Positions 26,992 through 39,653 of a stretch of 46,389 nucleotides of DNA are shown here, one piece after another (position 1 is the stretch's first letter; each line of letters begins with the position of its first letter). This stretch comes from a virus (taxonomy: Duplodnaviria > Heunggongvirae > Uroviricota > Caudoviricetes), in IMG/VR virus record IMGVR_UViG_2850808358_000009; one strand, 5' to 3'. A program made the position numbers and the translations under genes. The notes beneath the pieces were generated by a model. It was not told the DNA's origin, did no database searches, and saw nothing but the letters and a program-made list of their open reading frames with translations.

Positions 26992-27414
26992 TTATGCCGC
27001 CGAGCAGCTCCTACGCAAAGTCCTGATAGCCTGAGGCTTTGACTGAACCGACTGATCCATTTCGAGCACCACATCCAGCATGGCTAAGCAACCGTCAATA
27101 AATCCCTCTGCCGCCTGAAGCCTCTTCAGAACGTGGGTGTGAGATACGCCGAGCTTCTCACCCATCGCCCGCACGGGCATGGCCTGGACGTAATGCCACT
27201 CAAGGAGCGTGCACAGATACGGATCTTTTTTCTTCAGGCAGCTCATAGCGGAGTTGATGATAAGACCGTCATTGTCACTGCATTTCAGCCTTCCAGACTG
27301 CGTCGCGGGTAGCAGATTCTTAAACCCGGCTGCAACAGGAGGAAAGTAGACGCTACCACCTTCACTCGCAACCCAGCCACCCCAGCGCTCTAAAACCTGT
27401 TGAATATTACGCAT
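26992..27414 (-). CDS. Late-gene antiterminator Q (phage 82 / QuuD-like family)
   Basis: 140 aa; N-terminal MRNIQQVLERWGGW...AAGFK and LQAAEGFIDG region resemble QuuD-type Q proteins as recalled; sits upstream of the lysis and structural genes. Confidence 0.75.
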   Translation of the reverse strand: MRNIQQVLERWGGWVASEGGSVYFPPVAAGFKNLLPATQSGRLKCSDNDGLIINSAMSCLKKKDPYLCTLLEWHYVQAMPVRAMGEKLGVSHTHVLKRLQAAEGFIDGCLAMLDVVLEMDQSVQSKPQAIRTLRRSCSAA

Positions 27415-27459
27415 AGCTCTGACCTCTACGTTTTGCTACGTTTGGAAATTTTCTACTAC

Positions 27460-27690
27460 TCAATACTCGTTGAATGTCAGGTGGCCGCTAACACTGACGT
27501 TTGGCCCGTCAGATAACACAAGCTGGAAATTGTCGTCGCAAACAGAGCAGCCGAGGTCAATAACTACCGTTTTGTCGTGTTTATGCGCTCGCATGGCGAC
27601 ATCGCGAATAAACACGCTGTTACTAGCGCAGCGTGGGCAGGTAATTTCGTTATTTCCGTCGATATGATTTTTTAATCCTGAAACTTTCAT
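27460..27690 (-). CDS. Hypothetical small CxxC-containing protein
   Basis: 76 aa with CPRC ... CSVC pairs suggesting a zinc ribbon. Confidence 0.45.
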   Translation of the reverse strand: MKVSGLKNHIDGNNEITCPRCASNSVFIRDVAMRAHKHDKTVVIDLGCSVCDDNFQLVLSDGPNVSVSGHLTFNEY

Positions 27691-27712
27691 GTTGTTTACT
27701 CCAGCTAGTTAT

Positions 27713-28001
27713 TTGCAAATATTTGCAAGTTAATTTCCGGGTGGCAGTTAGGTGGCACTTAAATAGCTATCTGCCACCTCCTGAAACGCACGCCACGTAA
27801 GGTGCCGGGCTATTTTGGTGGCGGGTGGCAGATAGTTTTAGTTCTATATACATAAGAGATCGCATAATACATAAAATATAAGTTCTCGCGTATATAGTTT
27901 TAAATTCTATTGCCACCTGCCACCTTTTCACCGCTTCCAATTGATTTAATTGGTCTTTACCTGGTGGCAGTTAGTCGTTTATCTGCCACCTTACTGCCAC
28001 C
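27713..28001. repeat. Candidate replication origin: iterons flanking an AT-rich region, plus a 16-bp perfect palindrome
   Basis: At least nine copies of GGTGGCAG / CTGCCACC in both orientations around an AT-rich stretch of about 80 bp with a GATC; TTGCAAATATTTGCAA palindrome at about 27713..27728; directly downstream of the primase-helicase gene. Confidence 0.55.
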
Positions 28002-28004
28002 TTT

Positions 28005-30266
28005 TTACAATCCAGATTGCAAAATTTCGCAATTTTTATATATTTCACGCAATTCTTCGTTGCTGAAATCGGTATTTTTTACAAGTAACCACATGCGAAC
28101 AGTCATGCCGTCCACTTTTAGTTTCACTGCTTCACGTTTTGTTCTTTCTTTCAAAACGCGAGTAATATGCTTCTGGTTAATTTCTACATCCATTCCTGCT
28201 TCTGCCAGTATTGCGTTAACAATTTGTTGATAAGTCATTGCTGGCACAGGCGGATTATCCAGGATTTCAATAAGAGCAGCCTCCACATCGCTCTTATTGC
28301 TTTCAATCATCAGAAGGCGTTCTTTCGTCTCGGGGGCGCGCTGCCAGTTAAAGCGAGACAGGTCAACGCCCATCAGATACCAGTACACCTGGGCGATAAA
28401 GTCGCTGTCGCTTAGCGCACCGTACAGGCTGGCGTAATGCTCTTCAGTTGCGGCGAAGTCAGGGCCCCCCAGCACAGCGATACGTCGGTCTTCCTCTGGC
28501 AGCGCCAGCGCATCAAAGTGATTGGTGTAGAACAGAAAGCCAGTGTATATATCCATCGTTTTTTTACTGCCATATTTGCGGTTCACTTCAAACCGTGGTT
28601 CTGTCAGCACATCGCGGATCTTATCGTTCACCTCATACCGCTTATCATTTTCGCGCACCTCGTCAATGGTGCATAGAAGCGTATTGTACAGATAGTCATG
28701 GAACTGGTTATCGCACAGGATCTTCATGCGAGTACGAGCACAGTTCCACGGACCAAGCACGCGCTCCATTAACTGGCTGACCCATCCTCTGCCCGTACCA
28801 TGTGCGGTAGCCACATGCAGAATAGAAATCGGGCATCGACGCTCCGGACGCTGAACCATCCACCCCAGACGGGCGATGAAAAACTCGCGCTGCCAGGCAT
28901 CAGGTACCAGATACGCCATATGATTAAGGAACGTGGACACCTTACTTGTATCCGCTGTACGTGGATGCTCAGGCATATAAAATTCGTTTATCTCAAACCG
29001 CCCGTCGAAACGCTCGATAATACGTCCCGCACCGGGCTTATAGCCTGTCGTCTCAGCAATCTTCTTATGCCGATGCTCTATCCACCGTTTGGTTGCGGGA
29101 GTTGGTTGCCCTTTCCCTTCTGGCGGGAACTGGTAAGGCGCCATCAGGTTTTTGAACGACTTCATATCCATCATGCACTGATATGGCGGTCGGCTAAGAT
29201 CACATACCTGGTCACCCTCGATGACGTAGATAAAGCGTTCCAGAAAATGAGCTGTCATATCTGTATTAATATCGGTAAATTCAGGCTTATCGCCATCTTC
29301 AACCACCGTGAGATCTTCGAACAGGGATTGCGTATAGCCGTAGCCTTCCAGCCAGTCGGCATCAGTAAGCCCCGCATCGGTGTTGTGCATGCTTTTAAAA
29401 TGTCCCTGTTCAAATCCCCCCGTCCCTTTTGGGAAATACTTAATGGATGTTTCGCTGCAACCGTTGCTGTATTCTGACTCATCCCGAAACGGTTTCAGAT
29501 TGCGGGAACCATCAGAGCTGACTGACAGAGTCCACCCGTTCGCGTCAAGCCAGTCAGCGACATCATCTGTCGCGGAAGGATCAACACAGGAAAGGTCACG
29601 CTGACGTCCCGCACCTGCGGTATAGCTGTCTTTCACGGGTAAGTTATCCGCCAGGCGCTGCCACAGGCTTTCGAGCTGTTCAGATGTAATTTTCAGAGGT
29701 TCGCCGGGCAAACCGCAGTCCCACTGAATACGTTCGCCTGCCGGATGGGTACCACAAGCCACAAACTGCTGGCCCTTAGCGAGCAGCTCTATTTGTTTAT
29801 TTTCGCCTTCCAGGCGGTGACCACGTTTACGGTAGTCGCCATCAACAGCAATCAGGTACAGGCATTTATGACTGTCAGCCCGCCAGCGACGTGGCGGAAG
29901 TTCCCCCAGGCATGACAGGATAATATTGCGTACGATCTCCTGCATCCCGGCGTCATTGATATCGCAGTCCAGAGCCACCACCCCGTCGCCAGTACGAACG
30001 CAAATACCGTAATCGGGTTCGTTCGACCACCGGGCAAAATCGTTTTCCGTAACAACATAGTTAGCCCAGTCGGGGATACCAACGACCTTACGTTGGCCAT
30101 TGTAGCGACAGGGAGTTTTGCCGAAATTATGAGACAGCTTGCTATTAGGCGACAGTTCTGCACAGGGATTGGACACCACAGGTAAAAGCCTGTCTGTCAT
30201 CCCCAACACCAGATCGAAGTGGAACCACTCATCGGGCGTAGCTCCCCATGGTTTGTTATCAGCCAT
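28005..30266 (-). CDS. Replication protein: primase-polymerase N-terminal domain with D5/P4-alpha-type helicase C-terminal domain
   Basis: 753 aa; large single replication protein directly downstream of cro, adjacent to the iterons; domain call from recalled sequence character. Confidence 0.65.
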   Translation of the reverse strand: MADNKPWGATPDEWFHFDLVLGMTDRLLPVVSNPCAELSPNSKLSHNFGKTPCRYNGQRKVVGIPDWANYVVTENDFARWSNEPDYGICVRTGDGVVALDCDINDAGMQEIVRNIILSCLGELPPRRWRADSHKCLYLIAVDGDYRKRGHRLEGENKQIELLAKGQQFVACGTHPAGERIQWDCGLPGEPLKITSEQLESLWQRLADNLPVKDSYTAGAGRQRDLSCVDPSATDDVADWLDANGWTLSVSSDGSRNLKPFRDESEYSNGCSETSIKYFPKGTGGFEQGHFKSMHNTDAGLTDADWLEGYGYTQSLFEDLTVVEDGDKPEFTDINTDMTAHFLERFIYVIEGDQVCDLSRPPYQCMMDMKSFKNLMAPYQFPPEGKGQPTPATKRWIEHRHKKIAETTGYKPGAGRIIERFDGRFEINEFYMPEHPRTADTSKVSTFLNHMAYLVPDAWQREFFIARLGWMVQRPERRCPISILHVATAHGTGRGWVSQLMERVLGPWNCARTRMKILCDNQFHDYLYNTLLCTIDEVRENDKRYEVNDKIRDVLTEPRFEVNRKYGSKKTMDIYTGFLFYTNHFDALALPEEDRRIAVLGGPDFAATEEHYASLYGALSDSDFIAQVYWYLMGVDLSRFNWQRAPETKERLLMIESNKSDVEAALIEILDNPPVPAMTYQQIVNAILAEAGMDVEINQKHITRVLKERTKREAVKLKVDGMTVRMWLLVKNTDFSNEELREIYKNCEILQSGL

Positions 30267-30269
30267 GGG

Positions 30270-30509
30270 TTACACCTTTTGCTGCTCTGAATTTTCGCCG
30301 TTTAATAGCCAGTCAGGATCGCATTTCAGAACTTTTGCCAATTCAAGGATGAAACCGGTACGGGTGGCGCGTCCGGACTCAAGGTATTGAACAGACTGCT
30401 GGCGCATGCCAACACTTTCAGCCAATGAAGTTTGGGTTATACCTAAGGCTTTGCGGCGCTCCTTTATACGTGAAGCAAGGGTAGAACTGGTCATTGAGTA
30501 AGCCCTCAT
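30270..30509 (-). CDS. Cro-like HTH (XRE family) regulator
   Basis: HTH motif LGITQTSLAESVGMRQQSVQYLESG; divergent from cI; start moved to an internal ATG (30509, or 30494 which has a GAGGG SD). Confidence 0.7.
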   Translation of the reverse strand: MRAYSMTSSTLASRIKERRKALGITQTSLAESVGMRQQSVQYLESGRATRTGFILELAKVLKCDPDWLLNGENSEQQKV

Positions 30510-30510
30510 T

Positions 30511-30576
30511 ATTACAGGTTTACTTGTAATTACCTCACAGGCAACCTTGTTTGTCAAATACAGAAGTATCTGTAAT
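30511..30576. promoter_or_regulatory. Immunity operator region with two 20-bp near-palindromic operators and overlapping divergent promoters
   Basis: ATTACAGG-TTTA-CTTGTAAT (about 30511..30530) and AATACAGA-AGTA-TCTGTAAT (about 30557..30576); -35-like TTGTCA / TTGACA on opposite strands around 30551..30558; AAGGAG SD before the cI ATG. Confidence 0.55.
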
Positions 30577-30601
30577 CATCAATGACAGAAAAGGAGTCAA
30601 C

Positions 30602-32400: not shown

Positions 32401-32550
32401 ATGAAACCTGAATACCTCCATCGACTGACGGGGCGCGATGTTCTCCGTTATCGCCGTAAAAACTTCGATTTGATGACCGGTCTGGCCGTTGCCACTGCGC
32501 TCGGTCTGATCATCACTTTCATTCTCCTTGTAGCGAGGACCACAGTATGA
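32401..32550 (+). CDS. Small membrane protein (C-terminal TM helix)
   Basis: About 49 aa from the ATG preceded by AAGGA; hydrophobic C-terminus; overlaps the next gene start (ATGA). Confidence 0.45.
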   Translation: MKPEYLHRLTGRDVLRYRRKNFDLMTGLAVATALGLIITFILLVARTTV

Positions 32551-33449
32551 GTTTAGAAACCAGTCTCGAACTTAATAATCAACTTCTGGCACAACATAAT
32601 GCGCTGCTTGAACGTCTTATCCGCACAATGGCATCAGGCATTGTTATGCATCCTGACACGATTTCACGAGTGCAGGAATGTCGGGATACAGCAACTGAAA
32701 CTGAAAATATGTCAGCGGCAATGACACTGGATGATCTGGAGTTCAGCGACGTTATCGCACTGGCTGGTTTCTACCCGGTAGCCACCCCTATCACAGAAGA
32801 CATGCTGCAACGTGCTGTTGCCTACCGTGATGCTGAAGGCGATAAACGAGTTGTTCAGATTGATGCTCTCGACAGCGCATTGCAGGGCGTCAAACGAGCC
32901 AGGGCGCTGCTTAAACCTGCTCTCCTGGACCTGTCCCGTAACATCCTTAAGTTCTGGGACGACCTGCCAACCGTCGGCGAGCGACGTGCTTTTGCCGAGC
33001 AGCTACTTGATGCACCTGCGGATGGGCGTGATGAAGTTAAGCCGAAAAAGGCCAGTAACAAGGATGGAGAACGCACGGGGCCGTTTTACGTCAAAAATGT
33101 ATCCGGCACAGCAGCCAGTGAACTCCACACCTTACGCAAGTTGAACGAGATGCTGAAAAAAGGCCATATCGAGATCAACCGTGTTGAGTACCTTCAGCTG
33201 CAGGAAGAATTTGCACGAAGAGACGCAGCAAATTCCAGCCAGAATAATGACGCCAAAGATGACCATACAATTGATTTCGCGGCACTACGCAAACAAGCTG
33301 AAGGGTTGATCCTCCAGTTAGCAAAAGGGGGCTACCGGGCAGAAGCTATTGCAATTCTGGAAAAACAGGGAGCCAGGAAACTTGGTGAAGTAACGGATGA
33401 AAATCTCGCTGAAGTAATCACCCTGGCTGAAAAAGCACTGGAGGGTTAA
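32547..33449 (+). CDS. Hypothetical protein of the PolA module
   Basis: 300 aa ORF translationally coupled to neighbours. Confidence 0.45.
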
Positions 33450-33451
33450 TC

Positions 33452-34753
33452 ATGCCAGACGTTCACGCACAACTTTCTCCATCATCAGCGCATCGATGGA
33501 TGCGCTGCCCAGGAAGTCTGGCGCTGGAGGCCACACAACCGGATAAAGAAACAACTTTTGCAATCGAGGGCACTGCAGCGCACGCGCTTGCTGAAAAAGT
33601 TCTACGAAACAGGCAAACCCACCCGGAACACTACGCCGGATGCAATGTTTCTATGTTTCTCGGCTCATACCCCCTTCGCGAAAATCCTGATGATACATCT
33701 GGCCCACAGGTGGATGATGAAATGGTCGAAGCCGTCGGCCGGTATGTTGATACGGTCTGGACTCTTGCAAAGAATAATGAACTATTGGTTGAACAACGTG
33801 TTGATTTCTCACATATAACGGGTGTGGAAGAATCTTTCGGAACTGCCGACGGCATAATCATCGCTGGTAACGAATTACAAATCCACGACCTGAAATATGG
33901 CAAAGGCGTCCGCATTGATGCAGAACAAAATGAGCAACTACAACTGTATGCTCTGGGTGCGCTTGAACAATTCAGCATGCTGTATGACTTTGAAACTGTA
34001 AGATTATTTATTCACCAACCAAGGCTCAACCACGTTTCAGAATGGTCGTTAACCGTACAGGAACTTCAGTCTTTCGGTGAACGGGCGCTGGAGGCCGCAA
34101 CCAGTGCGATCCTTGTTCTCAATATTGCTGAATGCGAAGGCATTGAGACACTACCGCTGGAAAACTTCATACCTGGAGAAAAACAGTGCCGCTTCTGTAA
34201 AGCAAAAGCTATTTGCACTGCCCAGAAAATGCAGCATTTACAAACAGCGGCCAGCGATTTTGAAGATCTGACAAAGCCTGTCAGCGAAATAATCACCAAT
34301 GCCAGCGCACGTGTACCTCTGTTAACCATTGAGCAGCTTGCAGAGATCTATAGCCAGGCCGACTTTATTGAATCCTGGCTAAAGGCAGTACGGGACCGGG
34401 TTCACAATGAACTCAATGCCGGACATCCGGTACCGGGGTTTAAACTGGTAACAGGAAAACAAGGTAACCGGGCCTGGAGTGACGAAGAGGCAGCTCGCGC
34501 ACTTCTGAAGGATCAGTTCAGGTACAAAACTGAAGAAGTATTCGACTTTAAACTTATTAGTCCCACAAAAGCCGAAAAACTTATCAAAAAGGCCAGTCCG
34601 CGCCGTTGGTCAAAAGTCGAGGCACTGATAACACGAGCTGATGGTAAACCCACCGTCGTTCCCGAGTCAGACCCACGCCCCGCACTCAATATCAACCCTG
34701 TAAATGATTTCGACGACGTATCCGACGATACGCTAACCGCAGACCTCATCTGA
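33452..34753 (+). CDS. DUF2800-like PD-(D/E)XK (RecB/Cas4-like) nuclease
   Basis: 433 aa; N-terminal [14 protein letters not shown] motif and C-terminal Cys cluster ([10 protein letters not shown]) as recalled for DUF2800 proteins of PolA modules. Confidence 0.6.
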
Positions 34754-34768
34754 TTTAAGGAAATCCCC

Positions 34769-35317
34769 ATGAAACTGAAGCTGAACAATGTTCGTCTGGC
34801 CTTCCCGTCTCTGTTTGAAGCTAAAACGGTAAACGGCGAAGGCGATCCGCGTTTCTCCGCAGTATTTTTAATGTCTCCCAAACACCCACAACTGGAAGAA
34901 ATCCGTAAAGCTATGAAGCAGGTAGCGAAGGAAAAATGGGGGGAGAAGTGGGAGTCCATTTATAACCAGCTGGAGAAAAAACTCAATCTGTGCCTGCATG
35001 ATGGTGATGAAAAAGCAGAGTATGAAGGCTTTCCCGGCAATTTCTTCCTGAACGCTGCTAACAAAGCGCGCCCAGCTGTTCTTGATCGCGATCGTTCGCC
35101 ACTAATTCAGGCTGATGGACGTCCCTATGCAGGGTGCTATGTAAACGCCGTTATCGATATCTGGGCACAGGACAATAATTTCGGTAAACGCATTAATGCC
35201 TCACTCGGCGGAGTCCAGTTCCTGCGAGACGGCGATGCATTCGCTGGCGGCGGAGTGGCAAGCGCTGACGATTTCGACGATATCAGCGAAGGTGCTGATG
35301 CTGAAGCACTAATTTAA
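34769..35317 (+). CDS. DUF2815-like protein (candidate ssDNA-binding protein)
   Basis: 182 aa with acidic C-terminal tail; position between DUF2800 and the polymerase. Confidence 0.5.
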   Translation: MKLKLNNVRLAFPSLFEAKTVNGEGDPRFSAVFLMSPKHPQLEEIRKAMKQVAKEKWGEKWESIYNQLEKKLNLCLHDGDEKAEYEGFPGNFFLNAANKARPAVLDRDRSPLIQADGRPYAGCYVNAVIDIWAQDNNFGKRINASLGGVQFLRDGDAFAGGGVASADDFDDISEGADAEALI

Positions 35318-35392
35318 CCCTTCTTCATAGACGCCCGGTTACACGCCGGGTGTTTTTGCAAAGGGGATGACAACCTTTTGCAAAAGCATACA

Positions 35393-35501
35393 TTGACATC
35401 CGCGATAACCAATGGGTATATTCCGCTTCATGGTGCTCAAAACACCTTTTCTACTAGCGGAAACCGCGCCCGTCAGTCATGCGGATTTTTTATGTCCATG
35501 A
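35393..35501 (+). promoter_or_regulatory. Promoter (TTGACA-N18-TATATT), leaderless micro-ORF and hairpin plus T6, upstream of Bro-N paralog 1
   Basis: Near-consensus sigma-70 hexamers; ATG within a few nt of the predicted start site; 23-codon ORF (about 35430..35501); GCGG-aaa-CCGC and a second small hairpin before T6. Conserved in copy 2. Confidence 0.5.
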
Positions 35502-35643
35502 TATTGAGAATTCAATGGTCGGGCGTGCGGCTAATACAACACCCTTCCGAAGGGAAATACGCCCGCCGACTAGTAGCGGTTTTGAGCGCCCGACCACCCT
35601 CTCAAAAAGGGTAAATTCAAAATATCTACTAGGGCATAAAACC

Positions 35644-36417
35644 ATGAGTACCCAACTCGTATTCAAATCCCACATTCTCGAAACGATCGAACATAACGGC
35701 AAATCTTGGTTCACCGCTGCCACTCTGGCGACCGCGCTGGAATACTCACGAACGGACTCAGTCGCTCGTATTTATGACCGTAATCGGGATGAGTTTTCAG
35801 TTGAAATGACAACGACCGTCAAATTGACGGTCGTTAGGAAAACCGGCTCCGTCCAAATGAATAACCGCATTTTCTCTCTACGCGGTGCTCACCTGGTAGC
35901 GATGTTCGCAACAACGCCAGTAGCAAAAGAATTTCGCCGTTGGGTGCTTGATCTTATAGAGAAAGAAACCGCTATTCCGCAGTCCTCCACGGTACTGGCG
36001 CCGCACAGGGAGTGTCTGCCGAAAATGGTTTACCACCACAGTAGCAAATACAACCCGTACAGAGCCTACGCATGGAACGGAGAGAAGAACGTTTACGTCG
36101 GGTGCTATCCAACCGTGGATGAGGCTGTCGCTGCGCAGAAGGACTTTTACCGGAACGGCAGCACAAAGCGTATTCAGAAAGTGCAGACAGCAATCAATGA
36201 CGCAGAGAAGGAAATGTTCATCAACAATCTCCGCGCCATCTGTCATAACTTCCGGCGCATCAATGAAATCTGGCGCTCGCAGTTAATGCCTGCCCTCGAA
36301 AAAATGGATTCGAAACTGGTTTACCAGTTGCATGATCGTTTCAGCGACAGCATGTGTGCTCTGCCGACCATAGAAGACCGCATCGGCAGATATATTCCAC
36401 CCACTTTACCTCGTTAA
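35644..36417 (+). CDS. Bro-N domain protein (antirepressor-like), paralog 1
   Basis: 258 aa; N-terminal Bro-N-like region; C-terminal two-thirds nearly identical to 39654..40430; start moved to the internal ATG. Confidence 0.65.
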   Translation: MSTQLVFKSHILETIEHNGKSWFTAATLATALEYSRTDSVARIYDRNRDEFSVEMTTTVKLTVVRKTGSVQMNNRIFSLRGAHLVAMFATTPVAKEFRRWVLDLIEKETAIPQSSTVLAPHRECLPKMVYHHSSKYNPYRAYAWNGEKNVYVGCYPTVDEAVAAQKDFYRNGSTKRIQKVQTAINDAEKEMFINNLRAICHNFRRINEIWRSQLMPALEKMDSKLVYQLHDRFSDSMCALPTIEDRIGRYIPPTLPR

Positions 36418-36483
36418 TCATTCAATCCGCCCCTGCTCAGCCAGGGGCTTTTTGTCACCGTTTAGTCCACGGAGGACACTGTC

Positions 36484-39411
36484 TTGTCTGAAAACATTCT
36501 ATGGGGCGACCTGGAAACCTATTGCGAAATCCCTATTACGAACGGTACCCATGCGTATGCCGAAGGCGTTGAAGTGATGCTGTTCGCATGGGCTATCAAC
36601 GACGGGCCCGTAAACGTGTGGGATATCACTGCCGGTGGTGGTATTCCACACGGCTTATACGAAGCAATCGCAGCCCCTGAGACCCTGCTTTATTTTCATA
36701 ACTCTCACTTCGACCGCACCGTCCTGCGTTATGCAATGCCGCGACTGGCACCGCCAGTCGAACGTTGGCGCGACACAATGGTGCAGGCGCTGGCGCACGG
36801 CCTCCCGGGGTCTCTGGGGGAACTCTGCGAAATACTCGGCGTCCCGCAAGACAAAGCGAAGGACAAAGAAGGTAAAGCGCTGATCCAGCTGTTCTGTAAG
36901 CCACGCCCGAAAAACAGCAAACTGCGTCGGGCCACCAGTAAAACCCACCCAGAAGAATGGCGGCGCTTTGTTGCTTACGCCGGGCTGGATATCGAGGCAA
37001 TGCGCGAAGTCTATAAACGTCTGCCGAAGTGGAATTATCAGGGGACAGAACTGGCGCTCTGGCATCGTGATCAGCAGATCAACGACCGGGGCGTCTGCAT
37101 GGACATTCAACTCGCGCGCGCTGCGATCGAAGCGGTAGACCAGGAGCAAAAGCGCCTGGCAAAGCGTACACAGGAAATGACTGATGGCGAAGTGCAGGCA
37201 GCCACACAACGGGACGCGTTGATTAAGCACATCGTTGAATCCTACGGTGTGGAGCTACCAGACATGCAACGCAGTACCCTGGAACGTCGTATAGCCGACC
37301 CCGATTTACCATCTGCCGTGAAAGAACTGCTGGCTATCCGCCAGCAAGCCAGTACTACCAGCACCAGTAAATACAAGGCACTGATGAAAGGCGTAAGCCA
37401 CGACGGGCGCTTACGCGGTACGCTACAGTTCTGCGGGGCGTCACGTACCGGGCGCTGGGCCGGACGGCTATTCCAGCCCCAGAATCTTCCCCGCCCTTCA
37501 CTAAAACAGGAACAAATAGACGAAGGCATCGAAGCACTGAAAGCCGGATGTGCAGACCTGCTGTTTGACAATATCATGGAACTAACCAGTTCAGCGTTAC
37601 GTGGCTGCATTATCGCGCCAACAGGTAAAAAACTGGTGGTAAGTGACTTGTCGAACATTGAAGGCCGTATGCTGGCATGGCTGGCGGGAGAAGAATGGAA
37701 ACTGAATGCATTCAGAGAGTACGACGCCGGAACGGGTCCGGACTTATATAAACTGGCGTATGCAAAAGCTTACGGAATTGAAGTTGAGCGCGTCACCAAA
37801 GACCAGCGCCAGATAGGTAAAGTGCTGGAATTGGCTTGCATAGCTCCGGATACTTTAGTGCTCACCGATAAAGGCTATAAGCCGCTTGTTAGTATTTCGG
37901 GCGCGGATTTGTTATGGGACGGAGAAGAATGGGTAAAACACGAAGGACTGATTTACAGGGGGTACAAAGCCTTAATATCACTGGACGGAGCAAAAATGAC
38001 CCCGGATCACCAGGTGCTAACCCCTACTGGATGGAAGCTGGCAAACCTTATCGCTTTAAACAAAAATACGCTTCACCAAAGCCTGGAACTTGCTTCGGAG
38101 AACTTACCGTTATCAAAGAACTGGAAAAAGTACCCGGAAAAGACCGAAGGATACTTGTCAAATGCAAATGTGGTGCAATGCCTCACACCGCAACAATCAG
38201 CAATCTCCTTAAAGGGAAAAGTACCCGATGTAACATTTGCGCAAAGAAAAAGCATAACGAGTATCGTAAAAAATTCTTATGCTATGCGGATGCTATTGCA
38301 GATGACGAAACCCGTCGCAGGCTACTTAACCGATTGTCTGCCGCAATCAGCCGTTGCCATAAACCCACCAACAGGTTGTTTCACAACTACGGCGGTCGGG
38401 GGATCTACGTTTGTCAGCTATGGCAGGAAGATAAAAGAGCTTTTTTGCTACACGTCAGGGAAATCAAAGGGTTTAATGACCCAAAGTTGGAAATGGATCG
38501 CATCGACAATAACAAAGGCTACGAACCGGGTAATATCCAGTTCGTCTCCAAAGCAGACAATAACCGCAACAGAAGAAAAATCGCAGACCTGCAAAAGCGT
38601 ATCGACGAGCTGGAGCGATGTTTACGACATTGCACATGCGGGGCCTCGAAACAGATTCACGATTAAAACCGACTCAGGACATTTAATCGTTCACAACTGC
38701 GGGTACGGTGGTGGTGTGTCGGCCTTCATCACTTTTGCACTGGTTTACAGTCTCGATCTCGACGAGCTGGCGAACGCCGCACTGCCAAACATTCCCCGCG
38801 ATGTTATCCGCGAGGCGAAAAGCTGGTACTACGAATCGGTTAAACGTAAGTCAACCTACGGCCTTTCTGAACGGGTATTTATCGCCTGCGACTCACTTAA
38901 ACGTCTCTGGCGCAGGGCGCACCCGGCGACCTGCGATTTCTGGTACGAACTGGAGCGCACCGTCCGCACTGCAATCGCCACACCGCAAAAAACATTGTAT
39001 TGCGGTTATCTTAAAATCCGCCGCGATGGCGCGTGGCTGCGCATACAGCTACCATCCGGACGCGCGGTATGCTACCCGTCTCCGGTTATCGAAAAAGGGA
39101 ATATCACCTACATGGGTGTTAACTCTTATTCGCGTAAATGGCAACGACTCAAAACCTACGGCGGAAAGCTGGTAGAGAACGTCACCCAGGCGGCCGCCCG
39201 CGACGTTCTGGCCGGAAACATGCCGCTTATCGAAGATGCCGGTTACAGCATTGTGCTGACGGTACACGATGAAATTATAAGTGAGGCCCCTGACTCACCC
39301 GATTACTCAGCAGAACATGTCAGCCAGTTACTGGCAACCGTTCCTGACTGGGCCACGAGCATTCCACTAAACGCCGGAGGATTCGAATCTTACAGATACC
39401 GGAAAGATTGA
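36484..39411 (+). CDS. Family A DNA polymerase (3'-5' exonuclease plus polymerase domains) containing an intein
   Basis: 975 aa single ORF, TTG start after a GGAGG SD; DLET exonuclease motif near the N-terminus; after removing 37837..38697 the junction reads [21 protein letters not shown], which fits PolA motif B. Confidence 0.75.
37837..38697 (+). other. Intein within polymerase motif B (Cys-initiated, ends His-Asn, next extein residue Cys)
   Basis: Starts [17 protein letters not shown] with a TPDHQVLT block-B-like motif; ends [27 protein letters not shown] followed by C; 287 codons in the polymerase frame. Confidence 0.7.
37914..38666 (+). CDS. HNH-type homing endonuclease in the -1 frame relative to the polymerase, nested inside the intein
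   Basis: Zinc-binding FGELTVIKE...CKCG...CNICAKK region and an HNH-like motif [27 protein letters not shown]. The protein-like part spans roughly 38073..38613; true start unknown. Confidence 0.6.
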
Positions 39412-39531
39412 CATCCGCGATGACCAATAGGTATATTCCGCTTCATGGTGCTGAACACACCTATACAAGCGGAAACCGCGCCCGTCAGTCATGCGGATTT
39501 TTTATGTCCATTTTCAGATATGGTCGGGTAG
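39408..39531 (+). promoter_or_regulatory. Second copy of the promoter / leaderless micro-ORF / terminator element, upstream of Bro-N paralog 2
   Basis: Same TTGACA-N18-TATATT and hairpin plus T6. The polymerase stop codon TGA lies inside the -35 hexamer. Micro-ORF about 39445..39531 (28 codons) differs from copy 1 by a frame-preserving 3-nt indel. Confidence 0.5.
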
Positions 39532-39653
39532 CGCGTATACCGAAAAACAGCCGAAAGGCTAAGGATACGGGCCGTTCTTGTATGCGGTGTTCAAGTACCT
39601 GACCGCCCTGCTGAACACAGGGATTCTGAACAAAAATACAAGGACATAAAACT

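Follow-up and report, generated by a model that had tools for sequence, protein, structure and literature searches.

SaPI origins comprise 6-12 iterons placed right after the rep gene, with an AT-rich centre between them and at least two opposed iterons on each side (PMC9371898). The SaPI initiator is a self-loading helicase which recognises the iterons via a C-terminal winged helix, and two hexamers are thought to load flanking the centre (PMC9371898). Gram-negative PICIs share this layout, and a rep-ori fragment of one of them, EcCICFT073, supported plasmid maintenance (PMC6092414). For pRN1 ORF904 and Bordetella phage BIP-1, a large stem-loop downstream of the replication gene was proposed as the origin by Berkner et al. 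(PMC4234260). P4 has two separated cis elements, ori and crr, in which one and the same octamer occurs; crr consists of two direct 120-bp repeats. In SV40 and the papillomaviruses, the SF3 helicase (large T antigen and E1, respectively) uses an origin-binding domain of its own to bind short inverted repeats which flank or adjoin an AT-rich segment that melts easily, and forms a double hexamer.

The sequence described here lies in a stretch of 46,389 nucleotides, the whole of which was analysed and which we refer to as the window. The window is a lambdoid-organised E. coli prophage, full rather than a satellite island. The region at 27713-28032 (core 27740-28001) is, with a probability which we put at about 0.8 from the sequence comparisons below, the vegetative replication origin of this prophage, of the iteron type and bound by the adjacent Prim-Pol/SF3-helicase protein (Rep). 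Arrays of this kind are already well known; the member found here is unannotated. The features on which the argument draws are the following, in order of position.

27713-27728: TTGCAAATATTTGCAA, a perfect palindrome which borders the array on its outer side, ~150 bp away from the centre of the dyad
27740-27778: outer iteron triplet, rep-distal, with sites at 27740(+), 27751(+) and 27771(-); mirror of 27963-28001, the 39-nt arms being 82% complementary
27817-27831, plus strand: two inner iterons beyond the AT-rich core as seen from rep, GGTGGCGG and GGTGGCAG with a one-base overlap
27832-27909: AT-rich core, 78 bp, 23% GC, with an inverted repeat and one GATC inside; proposed DNA-unwinding element
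27910-27924, minus strand: two inner iterons between the AT-rich core and rep, GGTGGCAA and GGTGGCAG with a one-base overlap
27963-28001: outer iteron triplet, rep-proximal, with sites at 27963(+), 27983(-) and 27994(-); in rep orientation these run +3, +14 and +35 from the stop codon
28005-30266, minus strand: rep, encoding a 753-aa protein with an N-terminal Prim-Pol (AEP) primase-polymerase, an SF3 helicase core (DUF5906) and a predicted C-terminal winged-helix domain
28014-28295, minus strand: predicted winged-helix domain, the proposed origin-binding domain (Rep residues 658-751)
28017-28032: mirror partner TTGCGAAATTTTGCAA of the palindrome, within the last rep codons, ~154 bp from the dyad centre
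28089-28133, minus strand: wing hairpin codons, EAVKLKVDGMTVRMW (Rep 712-726), strands b2-turn-b3 of the model; co-varies with the iteron core

On the minus strand, the gene order is a cI-like repressor (divergent), a Cro-type HTH gene, rep, the array, a 76-aa ORF, antiterminator Q, lysis genes and terminase. Besides cI/cro and Q, the window carries genes for holin, endolysin, Rz, TerS and TerL, with an integrase located at its end, and over 3 kb separate the terminase genes from the array. A divergent early-left operon (32547-39411 and 42929-44323, plus strand) encodes a DUF2800 PD-(D/E)XK nuclease, an Enc34-type ssDNA-binding protein, a family A DNA polymerase and an SNF2 helicase, so that the phage carries much of its own replication machinery. 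The Pol A ORF has 975 aa and a partial family A DNA polymerase match, and the relative ON470582 annotates a polymerase of 688 aa. Two Rfam sRNA-Xcc1 (RF02221) matches above the gathering score (70 and 66 bits) flank the Pol A gene in the early-left region, on the plus strand, at 35517-35603 and 39522-39612. The segment containing the array is 95% identical to the E. coli phages vB_EcoM-689R2, 611R5, 683R1 and 606R2, and two complete E. coli chromosomes (O121 201805972 and VL40) carry the array at 100% identity, with no RefSeq feature beneath it. A search of the literature on the iteron motif and on the phage names found nothing relevant. If the region is indeed the origin, it has been located for an unannotated prophage family of E. 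coli, Salmonella and relatives.

The array occupies a gap of 314 bp (27691-28004) between two minus-strand ORFs, rep and the 76-aa ORF (27460-27690). Its ten GGTGGCA(G) sites form a cluster of 262 bp (27740-28001), in which seven are exact 8-mers and three have one mismatch (27751, GGTGGCAC; 27817, GGTGGCGG; 27910 on the minus strand, GGTGGCAA); nine of the ten contain the exact 7-mer GGTGGCA. The first-pass annotation had reported at least nine copies of an 8-bp motif, a count which holds for the 7-mer core and is slightly generous for the 8-mer. Similar motif density elsewhere, which that annotation had named as an argument against its own reading, was not found: the exact 8-mer (GGTGGCAG/CTGCCACC) occurs seven times in 27740-28001 and only once more in the 46-kb window (17376). 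The chance expectation is 1.65 per 46-kb window, and none of 100 shuffles reached eight. The repeat cluster is real and strongly non-random.

Read along the plus strand, the sites are ordered 27740+, 27751+, 27771- and 27817+, 27824+ on one side of the AT-rich core (27832-27909), and 27910-, 27917- and 27963+, 27983-, 27994- on the other. The array is a dyad centred near 27870, mirror-symmetric, with five sites on each side; the symmetry reaches partly into the spacers (53% identity against ~27% expected from composition, a value inflated by optimal alignment). The iteron nearest to rep ends 3 nt from the stop codon (28005-28007). Thus the earlier description of motifs in both orientations flanking an AT-rich region of about 80 bp, directly downstream of the primase-helicase gene, is borne out, the core being 78 bp long with 23% GC and the gene being the 753-aa ORF. 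No second iteron cluster able to serve as a separate ori was found in the 46-kb window. Four one-mismatch iterons (GGTAGCAG, GGTGGTAG, GGTGGCTG and GGTGGCCG) lie within 180 bp at 27308-27487, over the start of Q and the 76-aa ORF; as a second set of sites they were rejected, the enrichment being mild and not significant when the number of windows is allowed for.

The AT-rich core is thermodynamically weak. Of all 60-bp duplexes in the 46 kb, only one is less stable than its segment 27845-27905 (nearest-neighbour dG -65.5 kcal/mol; mean -85.7, sd 5.3), about equally AT-rich stretches being present elsewhere in the window. Within the core lies a class-conserved inverted repeat, CTATATAC (27844-27851) and GTATATAG (27890-27897), and CTATATACGCGAGA and TAYGTATATAGAAC are kept across all specificity types of class A (a class of relatives defined below). 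A GATC noted previously in the AT-rich region is present, as a single copy (27858-27861), and is missing in several relatives (L008, L016, L017 and L019); it is therefore not a defining feature, and control through GATC/Dam was rejected on the same grounds. The 16-bp perfect palindrome that had been reported nearby is TTGCAAATATTTGCAA at 27713-27728. Together with its partner at 28017-28032 it accounts for the only two occurrences of TTGCRAAWWWTTGCAA palindromes in the 46-kb window, and the two bracket the array symmetrically. A related TTGCA-N6-TGCAAATAAC is kept in relatives, irrespective of the next gene. The TTGCGAAATTTTGCAA partner is conserved in class A, where the same DNA encodes ..CEILQ.., so that constraint on the DNA and on the protein are inseparable at this site. 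The TTGC palindromes resemble neither the iterons nor the cI/cro operators.

Scans of the gap for sites of other kinds were largely empty. Neither a DnaA box (within one mismatch) nor an IHF consensus is present in 27691-28004, the terminator scan found none in the array, and an Rfam search returned no RNA family there. Promoter-like matches in the AT-rich core are weak and within about 2 sd of chance; with these at chance level and a terminator absent from the array, a promoter or terminator reading was dropped. Binding of CI or Cro at the array was also rejected, as the cI-cro operators (ATTACAGGT/ACTTGTAAT) are unlike the iterons and unlike the TTGC palindromes. The likely cI/cro operators themselves are found at 30505-30585, between the divergent repressor and the cro-like gene, as ATTACAGGTTTACTTGTAAT and a CTGTAATCAT arm which forms an inverted repeat with ATTATTACAG at 30508-30517.

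Rep matches PHROG 1156 'DNA primase' (1.5e-85), and its Pfam matches are Prim-Pol (PF09250) at residues 65-185 and DUF5906 (PF19263) at residues 488-595; PDB entries 6k9e/6k9c ('Primase') match residues 456-659, in the helicase part. For the C-terminus, an hmmsearch of the profile against the PDB gave nothing informative, and hhalign found no match to the C-termini of P4 alpha and EcCICFT073. These sequence searches being uninformative, the winged-helix assignment is taken from a fold model, namely an AlphaFold2 model of the last 150 residues based on a shallow alignment of 14 sequences. The model has a mean pLDDT of 67, rising to about 76-85 from model residue 60 onwards, and a strand-helix-helix-strand-strand-helix topology. 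It matches winged-helix domains in a generic manner only: Foldseek against the PDB gave weak, generic winged-helix matches, none with E<0.01, and did not recover the P4 origin-binding domain. The helix which precedes the wing (INQKHIT...) is invariant in the alignment.

We compared the window with the described systems in turn. As in SaPI/PICI Rep-ori systems, the putative origin is directly 3' of rep (3 nt in the window, and the same in 21 distinct class A relatives), and its ten sites, five per side, around a 78-bp core agree with the number of iterons, their opposed orientation on the two sides and the AT-rich centre of those systems. An AAA+/SF3-type helicase with a C-terminal winged helix is likewise predicted for the window Rep. 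SaPI/PICI initiators are often fused to a primase and host initiator sites are absent from their origins; both are as in the window. The carrier, however, differs, as the SaPI/PICI carrier is a satellite island whereas that of the window is a full prophage, in which cI/cro and Q are present along with genes for lysis and terminase. The proteins differ too: Pri-Rep of EcCICFT073 (locus L081) is composed of D5_N, DUF5906 and Pox_D5 while the window Rep has a Prim-Pol primase. DUF5906 is the only Pfam family shared, and BLASTP between the two showed no significant similarity (E = 4.9).

P4 alpha resembles the window Rep in combining a primase and an SF3 helicase (DUF5906) with a C-terminal DNA-binding domain, which in the window Rep is a predicted one, and P4 also has octamers in both orientations and a ten-iteron block right after the gene. 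In contrast, alpha has a Zn-ribbon and Toprim primase (PF08273 and PF13362), D5_N and Pox_D5, whereas the window Rep has Prim-Pol PF09250; no Pfam match to D5_N, Pox_D5, Zn-ribbon or Toprim was found in it, and BLASTP against alpha showed no significant similarity (E = 0.36). A further difference is that the two cis elements of P4 are separated, while the window has a single mirror-symmetric cluster. The P4 iteron, AGGTGAACAG, is very similar to the AGGTGGCAG of the window and one inserted base apart from the GGTGACAG variant found in L016. The iteron of the EcCICFT073 array (L081:28997-29284) is AGGTAGACAG; given these three iterons, the window, EcCICFT073 and P4 share an AGGT..CAG frame. The comparison with P4-alpha-type origins proposed in the first-pass annotation is apt for the iteron and for the ten-iteron block after the gene, and fails in that Rep is not an alpha homologue and the gene-adjacent block of P4 is crr, not ori. 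By analogy, the window element would work like the SaPI/PICI and P4 systems, with which it shares the iteron frame, its Rep being outside the sequence families of P4 alpha and the known PICI Pri-Reps. This suggests that a PICI-type origin layout is not exclusive to satellites and is found in complete temperate phages, which bears on where satellite replicons came from.

pRN1 ORF904 and BIP-1/BPP-1 share with the window the order of Prim-Pol, SF3 helicase and (in the window, modelled) winged helix, and a cis element just downstream of the replication gene, essential in those systems and putative in the window, and the window region is predicted to fold as a long hairpin; the pRN1 origin, however, was described without iterons, whereas the dyad of the window is built from ten repeats which co-vary with the wing. 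SV40 T antigen and E1 differ from the window Rep in an unrelated fold of the origin-binding domain, in their eukaryotic hosts and in having no fused primase. DnaA-dependent iteron origins (lambda ori, theta plasmids) have DnaA boxes and/or IHF sites, direct iterons and a host helicase recruited by a loader, whereas 27691-28004 has none of those sites, the iterons here form inverted sets and Rep has a helicase of its own.

Relatives provide evidence which ties the array to Rep. A scan of viral contigs with Rep gave 78 loci, of which 77 had enough flanking sequence. A 7-mer is present at 4-10 copies within 450 bp after the rep stop in all but one of the 77, the exception being L026, where the reading frame tracked is not the full-length rep; in the rest of each locus (~6-8 kb) the same 7-mer occurs only 0-3 times. 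Reps of 748-754 aa with a DUF5906 core (21 distinct sequences) were treated as class A. Across these 21 sequences, site positions and orientations are essentially fixed, with shifts of 1-3 bp: from the stop codon they run +3(+), +14(+), +35(-), +80(+), +87(+), the AT-rich core, ~+174(-), +181(-), +227(+), +248(-) and +259(-). The motif is AGGTnnCnG, with GGCAG, GACGG, AACAG, GTCAG or GACAG as its core, and the ten copies within a genome share one version. In all class A relatives the iteron core is predicted by a 15-residue Rep segment located 28-42 residues from the C-terminus, with the following pairs.

Wing EAVKLK[VI]DG[ML]TVRMW or ETAKVKIGGDTLRFW: iteron GGTGGCAG
Wing EPVRVKIDGFVYRIW: iteron GGTGACGG
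Wing (P)TDLVK[IV].G[MI]GYRFW: iteron GGTAACAG
Wing ..DG[CF]TNRFW or STQRFW: iteron GGTGTCAG
Wing ..DGIAQRFW: iteron GGTGACAG

These pairs do not depend on the remainder of the protein. When class A Reps are grouped by identity to the window Rep over residues 1-690, three wing/iteron types are found on the backbone at 99-100%, four on that at 78-80% and three on that at 69-70%. Identical pairs recur across the three backbones and with different downstream genes, and the switch of iteron tracks neither the rest of Rep nor the downstream gene. In the window, the first gene after the array is the 76-aa ORF on the minus strand, which has two CxxC pairs (zinc-ribbon-like) and no match in Pfam or PHROG; in relatives which share the array, this place is taken by unrelated genes (N-termini MSKIFRQCM, MQNNT.. 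and MQKIQVSKM). As the ten dispersed copies change in concert and are tied to a short segment of Rep, the repeats are best read as binding sites for Rep. In the predicted structure, the recognition helix would probably read the constant AGGT and the wing hairpin the variable iteron core.

The pair formed by the window and L005 shows how local the exchange is. Counted from the stop codon, identity between the two is 97-100% over -900 to -150 and again over +270 to +690, and their divergence is confined to a cassette of ~420 bp (-150 to +270) which contains the wing codons and the array and has 47-87% identity (47-83% at the wing codons). Since the wing codons are ~85-130 bp from the array, the wing-iteron association could be partly due to linkage inside one recombination cassette. 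Linkage alone, however, would not homogenise ten copies; together with this concerted change, the ~85 bp between the wing codons and the array (encoding the C-terminal helix), which stay 87-97% identical between the window and L005, argue against a reading by linkage only. The cognate specificity of Rep for its iterons is accordingly to be understood as suggested by co-variation.

The first-pass annotation had taken the array for an origin bound by the adjacent replication protein, a reading which gains support from the co-variation of ten copies with a 15-residue wing on three backbones and from the SaPI/PICI-like layout. From these features we infer physical binding, double-hexamer loading, melting, priming and initiation at the array. 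Rep would be translated from the cro-rep early-right operon, and its C-terminal winged helix would bind the ten AGGTGGCAG iterons. A pair of Rep hexamers would form, flanking the 78-bp AT-rich core, an arrangement proposed because the iteron sets are mirror images, and the self-loading SF3 helicase would melt the core without DnaA or a helicase loader. The N-terminal Prim-Pol would prime on the exposed strands, and phage Pol A with the Enc34-type SSB, or the host replisome, would carry out bidirectional extension.

A different possibility is that Rep binds the array while replication starts elsewhere, the array serving as a cis enhancer in the manner of crr, as an element for copy control or handcuffing, or as a roadblock or site of autoregulation by which read-through from rep into orf76 and Q is coupled to Rep occupancy. 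P4 offers a precedent, as its ten type-1 repeats right after alpha are crr, a cis-required enhancer, and its ori is 2.1 kb upstream of alpha. The position of the array is also compatible with such a function: it precedes Q within the early operon cro-rep-[array]-orf76-Q, where bound Rep could affect the timing of late genes. However, the 46-kb window holds no second iteron cluster as a separate ori, a mere enhancer needs no unstable AT-rich core between inverted sites, and the equivalently placed arrays of SaPIs and EcCICFT073 are origins (PMC9371898, PMC6092414). We regard a start site elsewhere as unlikely.

Somewhat less probable again is that Rep recognises not the duplex iterons but an extruded structure downstream of rep, a large stem-loop or cruciform, in which case the region would still be an origin with another mode of recognition. 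The layout of Prim-Pol, SF3 helicase and winged helix is as in pRN1 ORF904 and BIP-1 (PMC4234260); folded as single-stranded DNA, 27700-28040 gives one long hairpin (-68 kcal/mol, z = -7.3); and the spacer symmetry noted above points the same way, subject to its inflation by the alignment. A hairpin, however, needs complementarity only between its arms, whereas the direct copies within one arm (+3/+14 and +80/+87) are identical and switch in concert, and both orientations occur inside a single arm. Nor does a purely structural element predict co-variation with wing residues. As the direct repeats within an arm are identical, switch together and co-vary with Rep, sequence-specific binding to the duplex is the better explanation, and extrusion may contribute besides it.

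That the repeats are unrelated to Rep, and are instead operators for CI/Cro, Q or a host factor, a packaging or partition site, or an RNA element, is suggested by little besides the intergenic location upstream of Q and the weak promoter-like matches, and is very improbable given that the cI-cro operators differ, the promoter matches are near chance, terminator and Rfam matches are lacking, over 3 kb lie between the array and the terminase genes, and the iteron core co-varies with the Rep wing though both flanks are 97-100% identical.

The scan also returned sister classes of Rep. One group (L030-L079) comprises proteins of 722-736 aa with the same Prim-Pol N-terminus (~60% identity), and a second (L027-L029, rep at 3001-5220) comprises 739-aa proteins whose first 330 residues (Prim-Pol) are 96-97% identical to the window Rep. 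The C-terminal region of both groups differs from that of the window Rep, and a VapE-like helicase is present in L031 and L027, on which Pfam was run as group representatives. Sister-class genes are followed by downstream arrays with motifs of their own, including TGGAACCACCT, TGTAACCAC, GGTGGTAACAG, AGGTTGTCTA, AGGTTGGTACAG and AGGTTGAGTAA, and these track a short C-terminal segment, GYKRxxRRxxGKxxxVW. In L030-L079 the AT-rich core is a different one (ACCCCATATATATATATAAGTCG), with two to three tandem sites on each side; L027-L029 have AGGTTGAGTAA as iteron and an AT-rich core which is different again. These arrays indicate that the type of origin follows the helicase and winged-helix half of Rep and not the primase half, and the switch in L027-L029 after the first 330 residues indicates a recombination joint between the two halves.

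The main value added by these relatives is a natural series of matched wing/iteron cassettes, which shows how the specificity of such origins changes. Matched variants on near-identical backbones amount to a natural experiment on how the wing of a winged helix reads DNA, and the series is usable for designing orthogonal replicons which are independent of the host initiator. It is conceivable, if rather doubtful, that wing and iterons form a freely exchangeable module of replicon specificity (incompatibility), of which one Rep scaffold carries at least five variants and the VapE-type sister scaffold about nine others, and that its diversification is driven by avoiding or exploiting cross-recognition between co-resident prophages and satellites. 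Were this so, the series would be a readable wing-to-DNA code (MTV/DTL for GGCAG, FVY for GACGG, MGY for AACAG, CTN/STQ for GTCAG and IAQ for GACAG), and this code would predict which phages and satellites fire or titrate one another's origins. As a separate observation on the sister classes, L031 and L030 have a perfect DnaA box (TTATCCACA) within GCGTTATCCACACCCACGGATAAAC, ~100-130 bp downstream of their arrays and upstream of Q.
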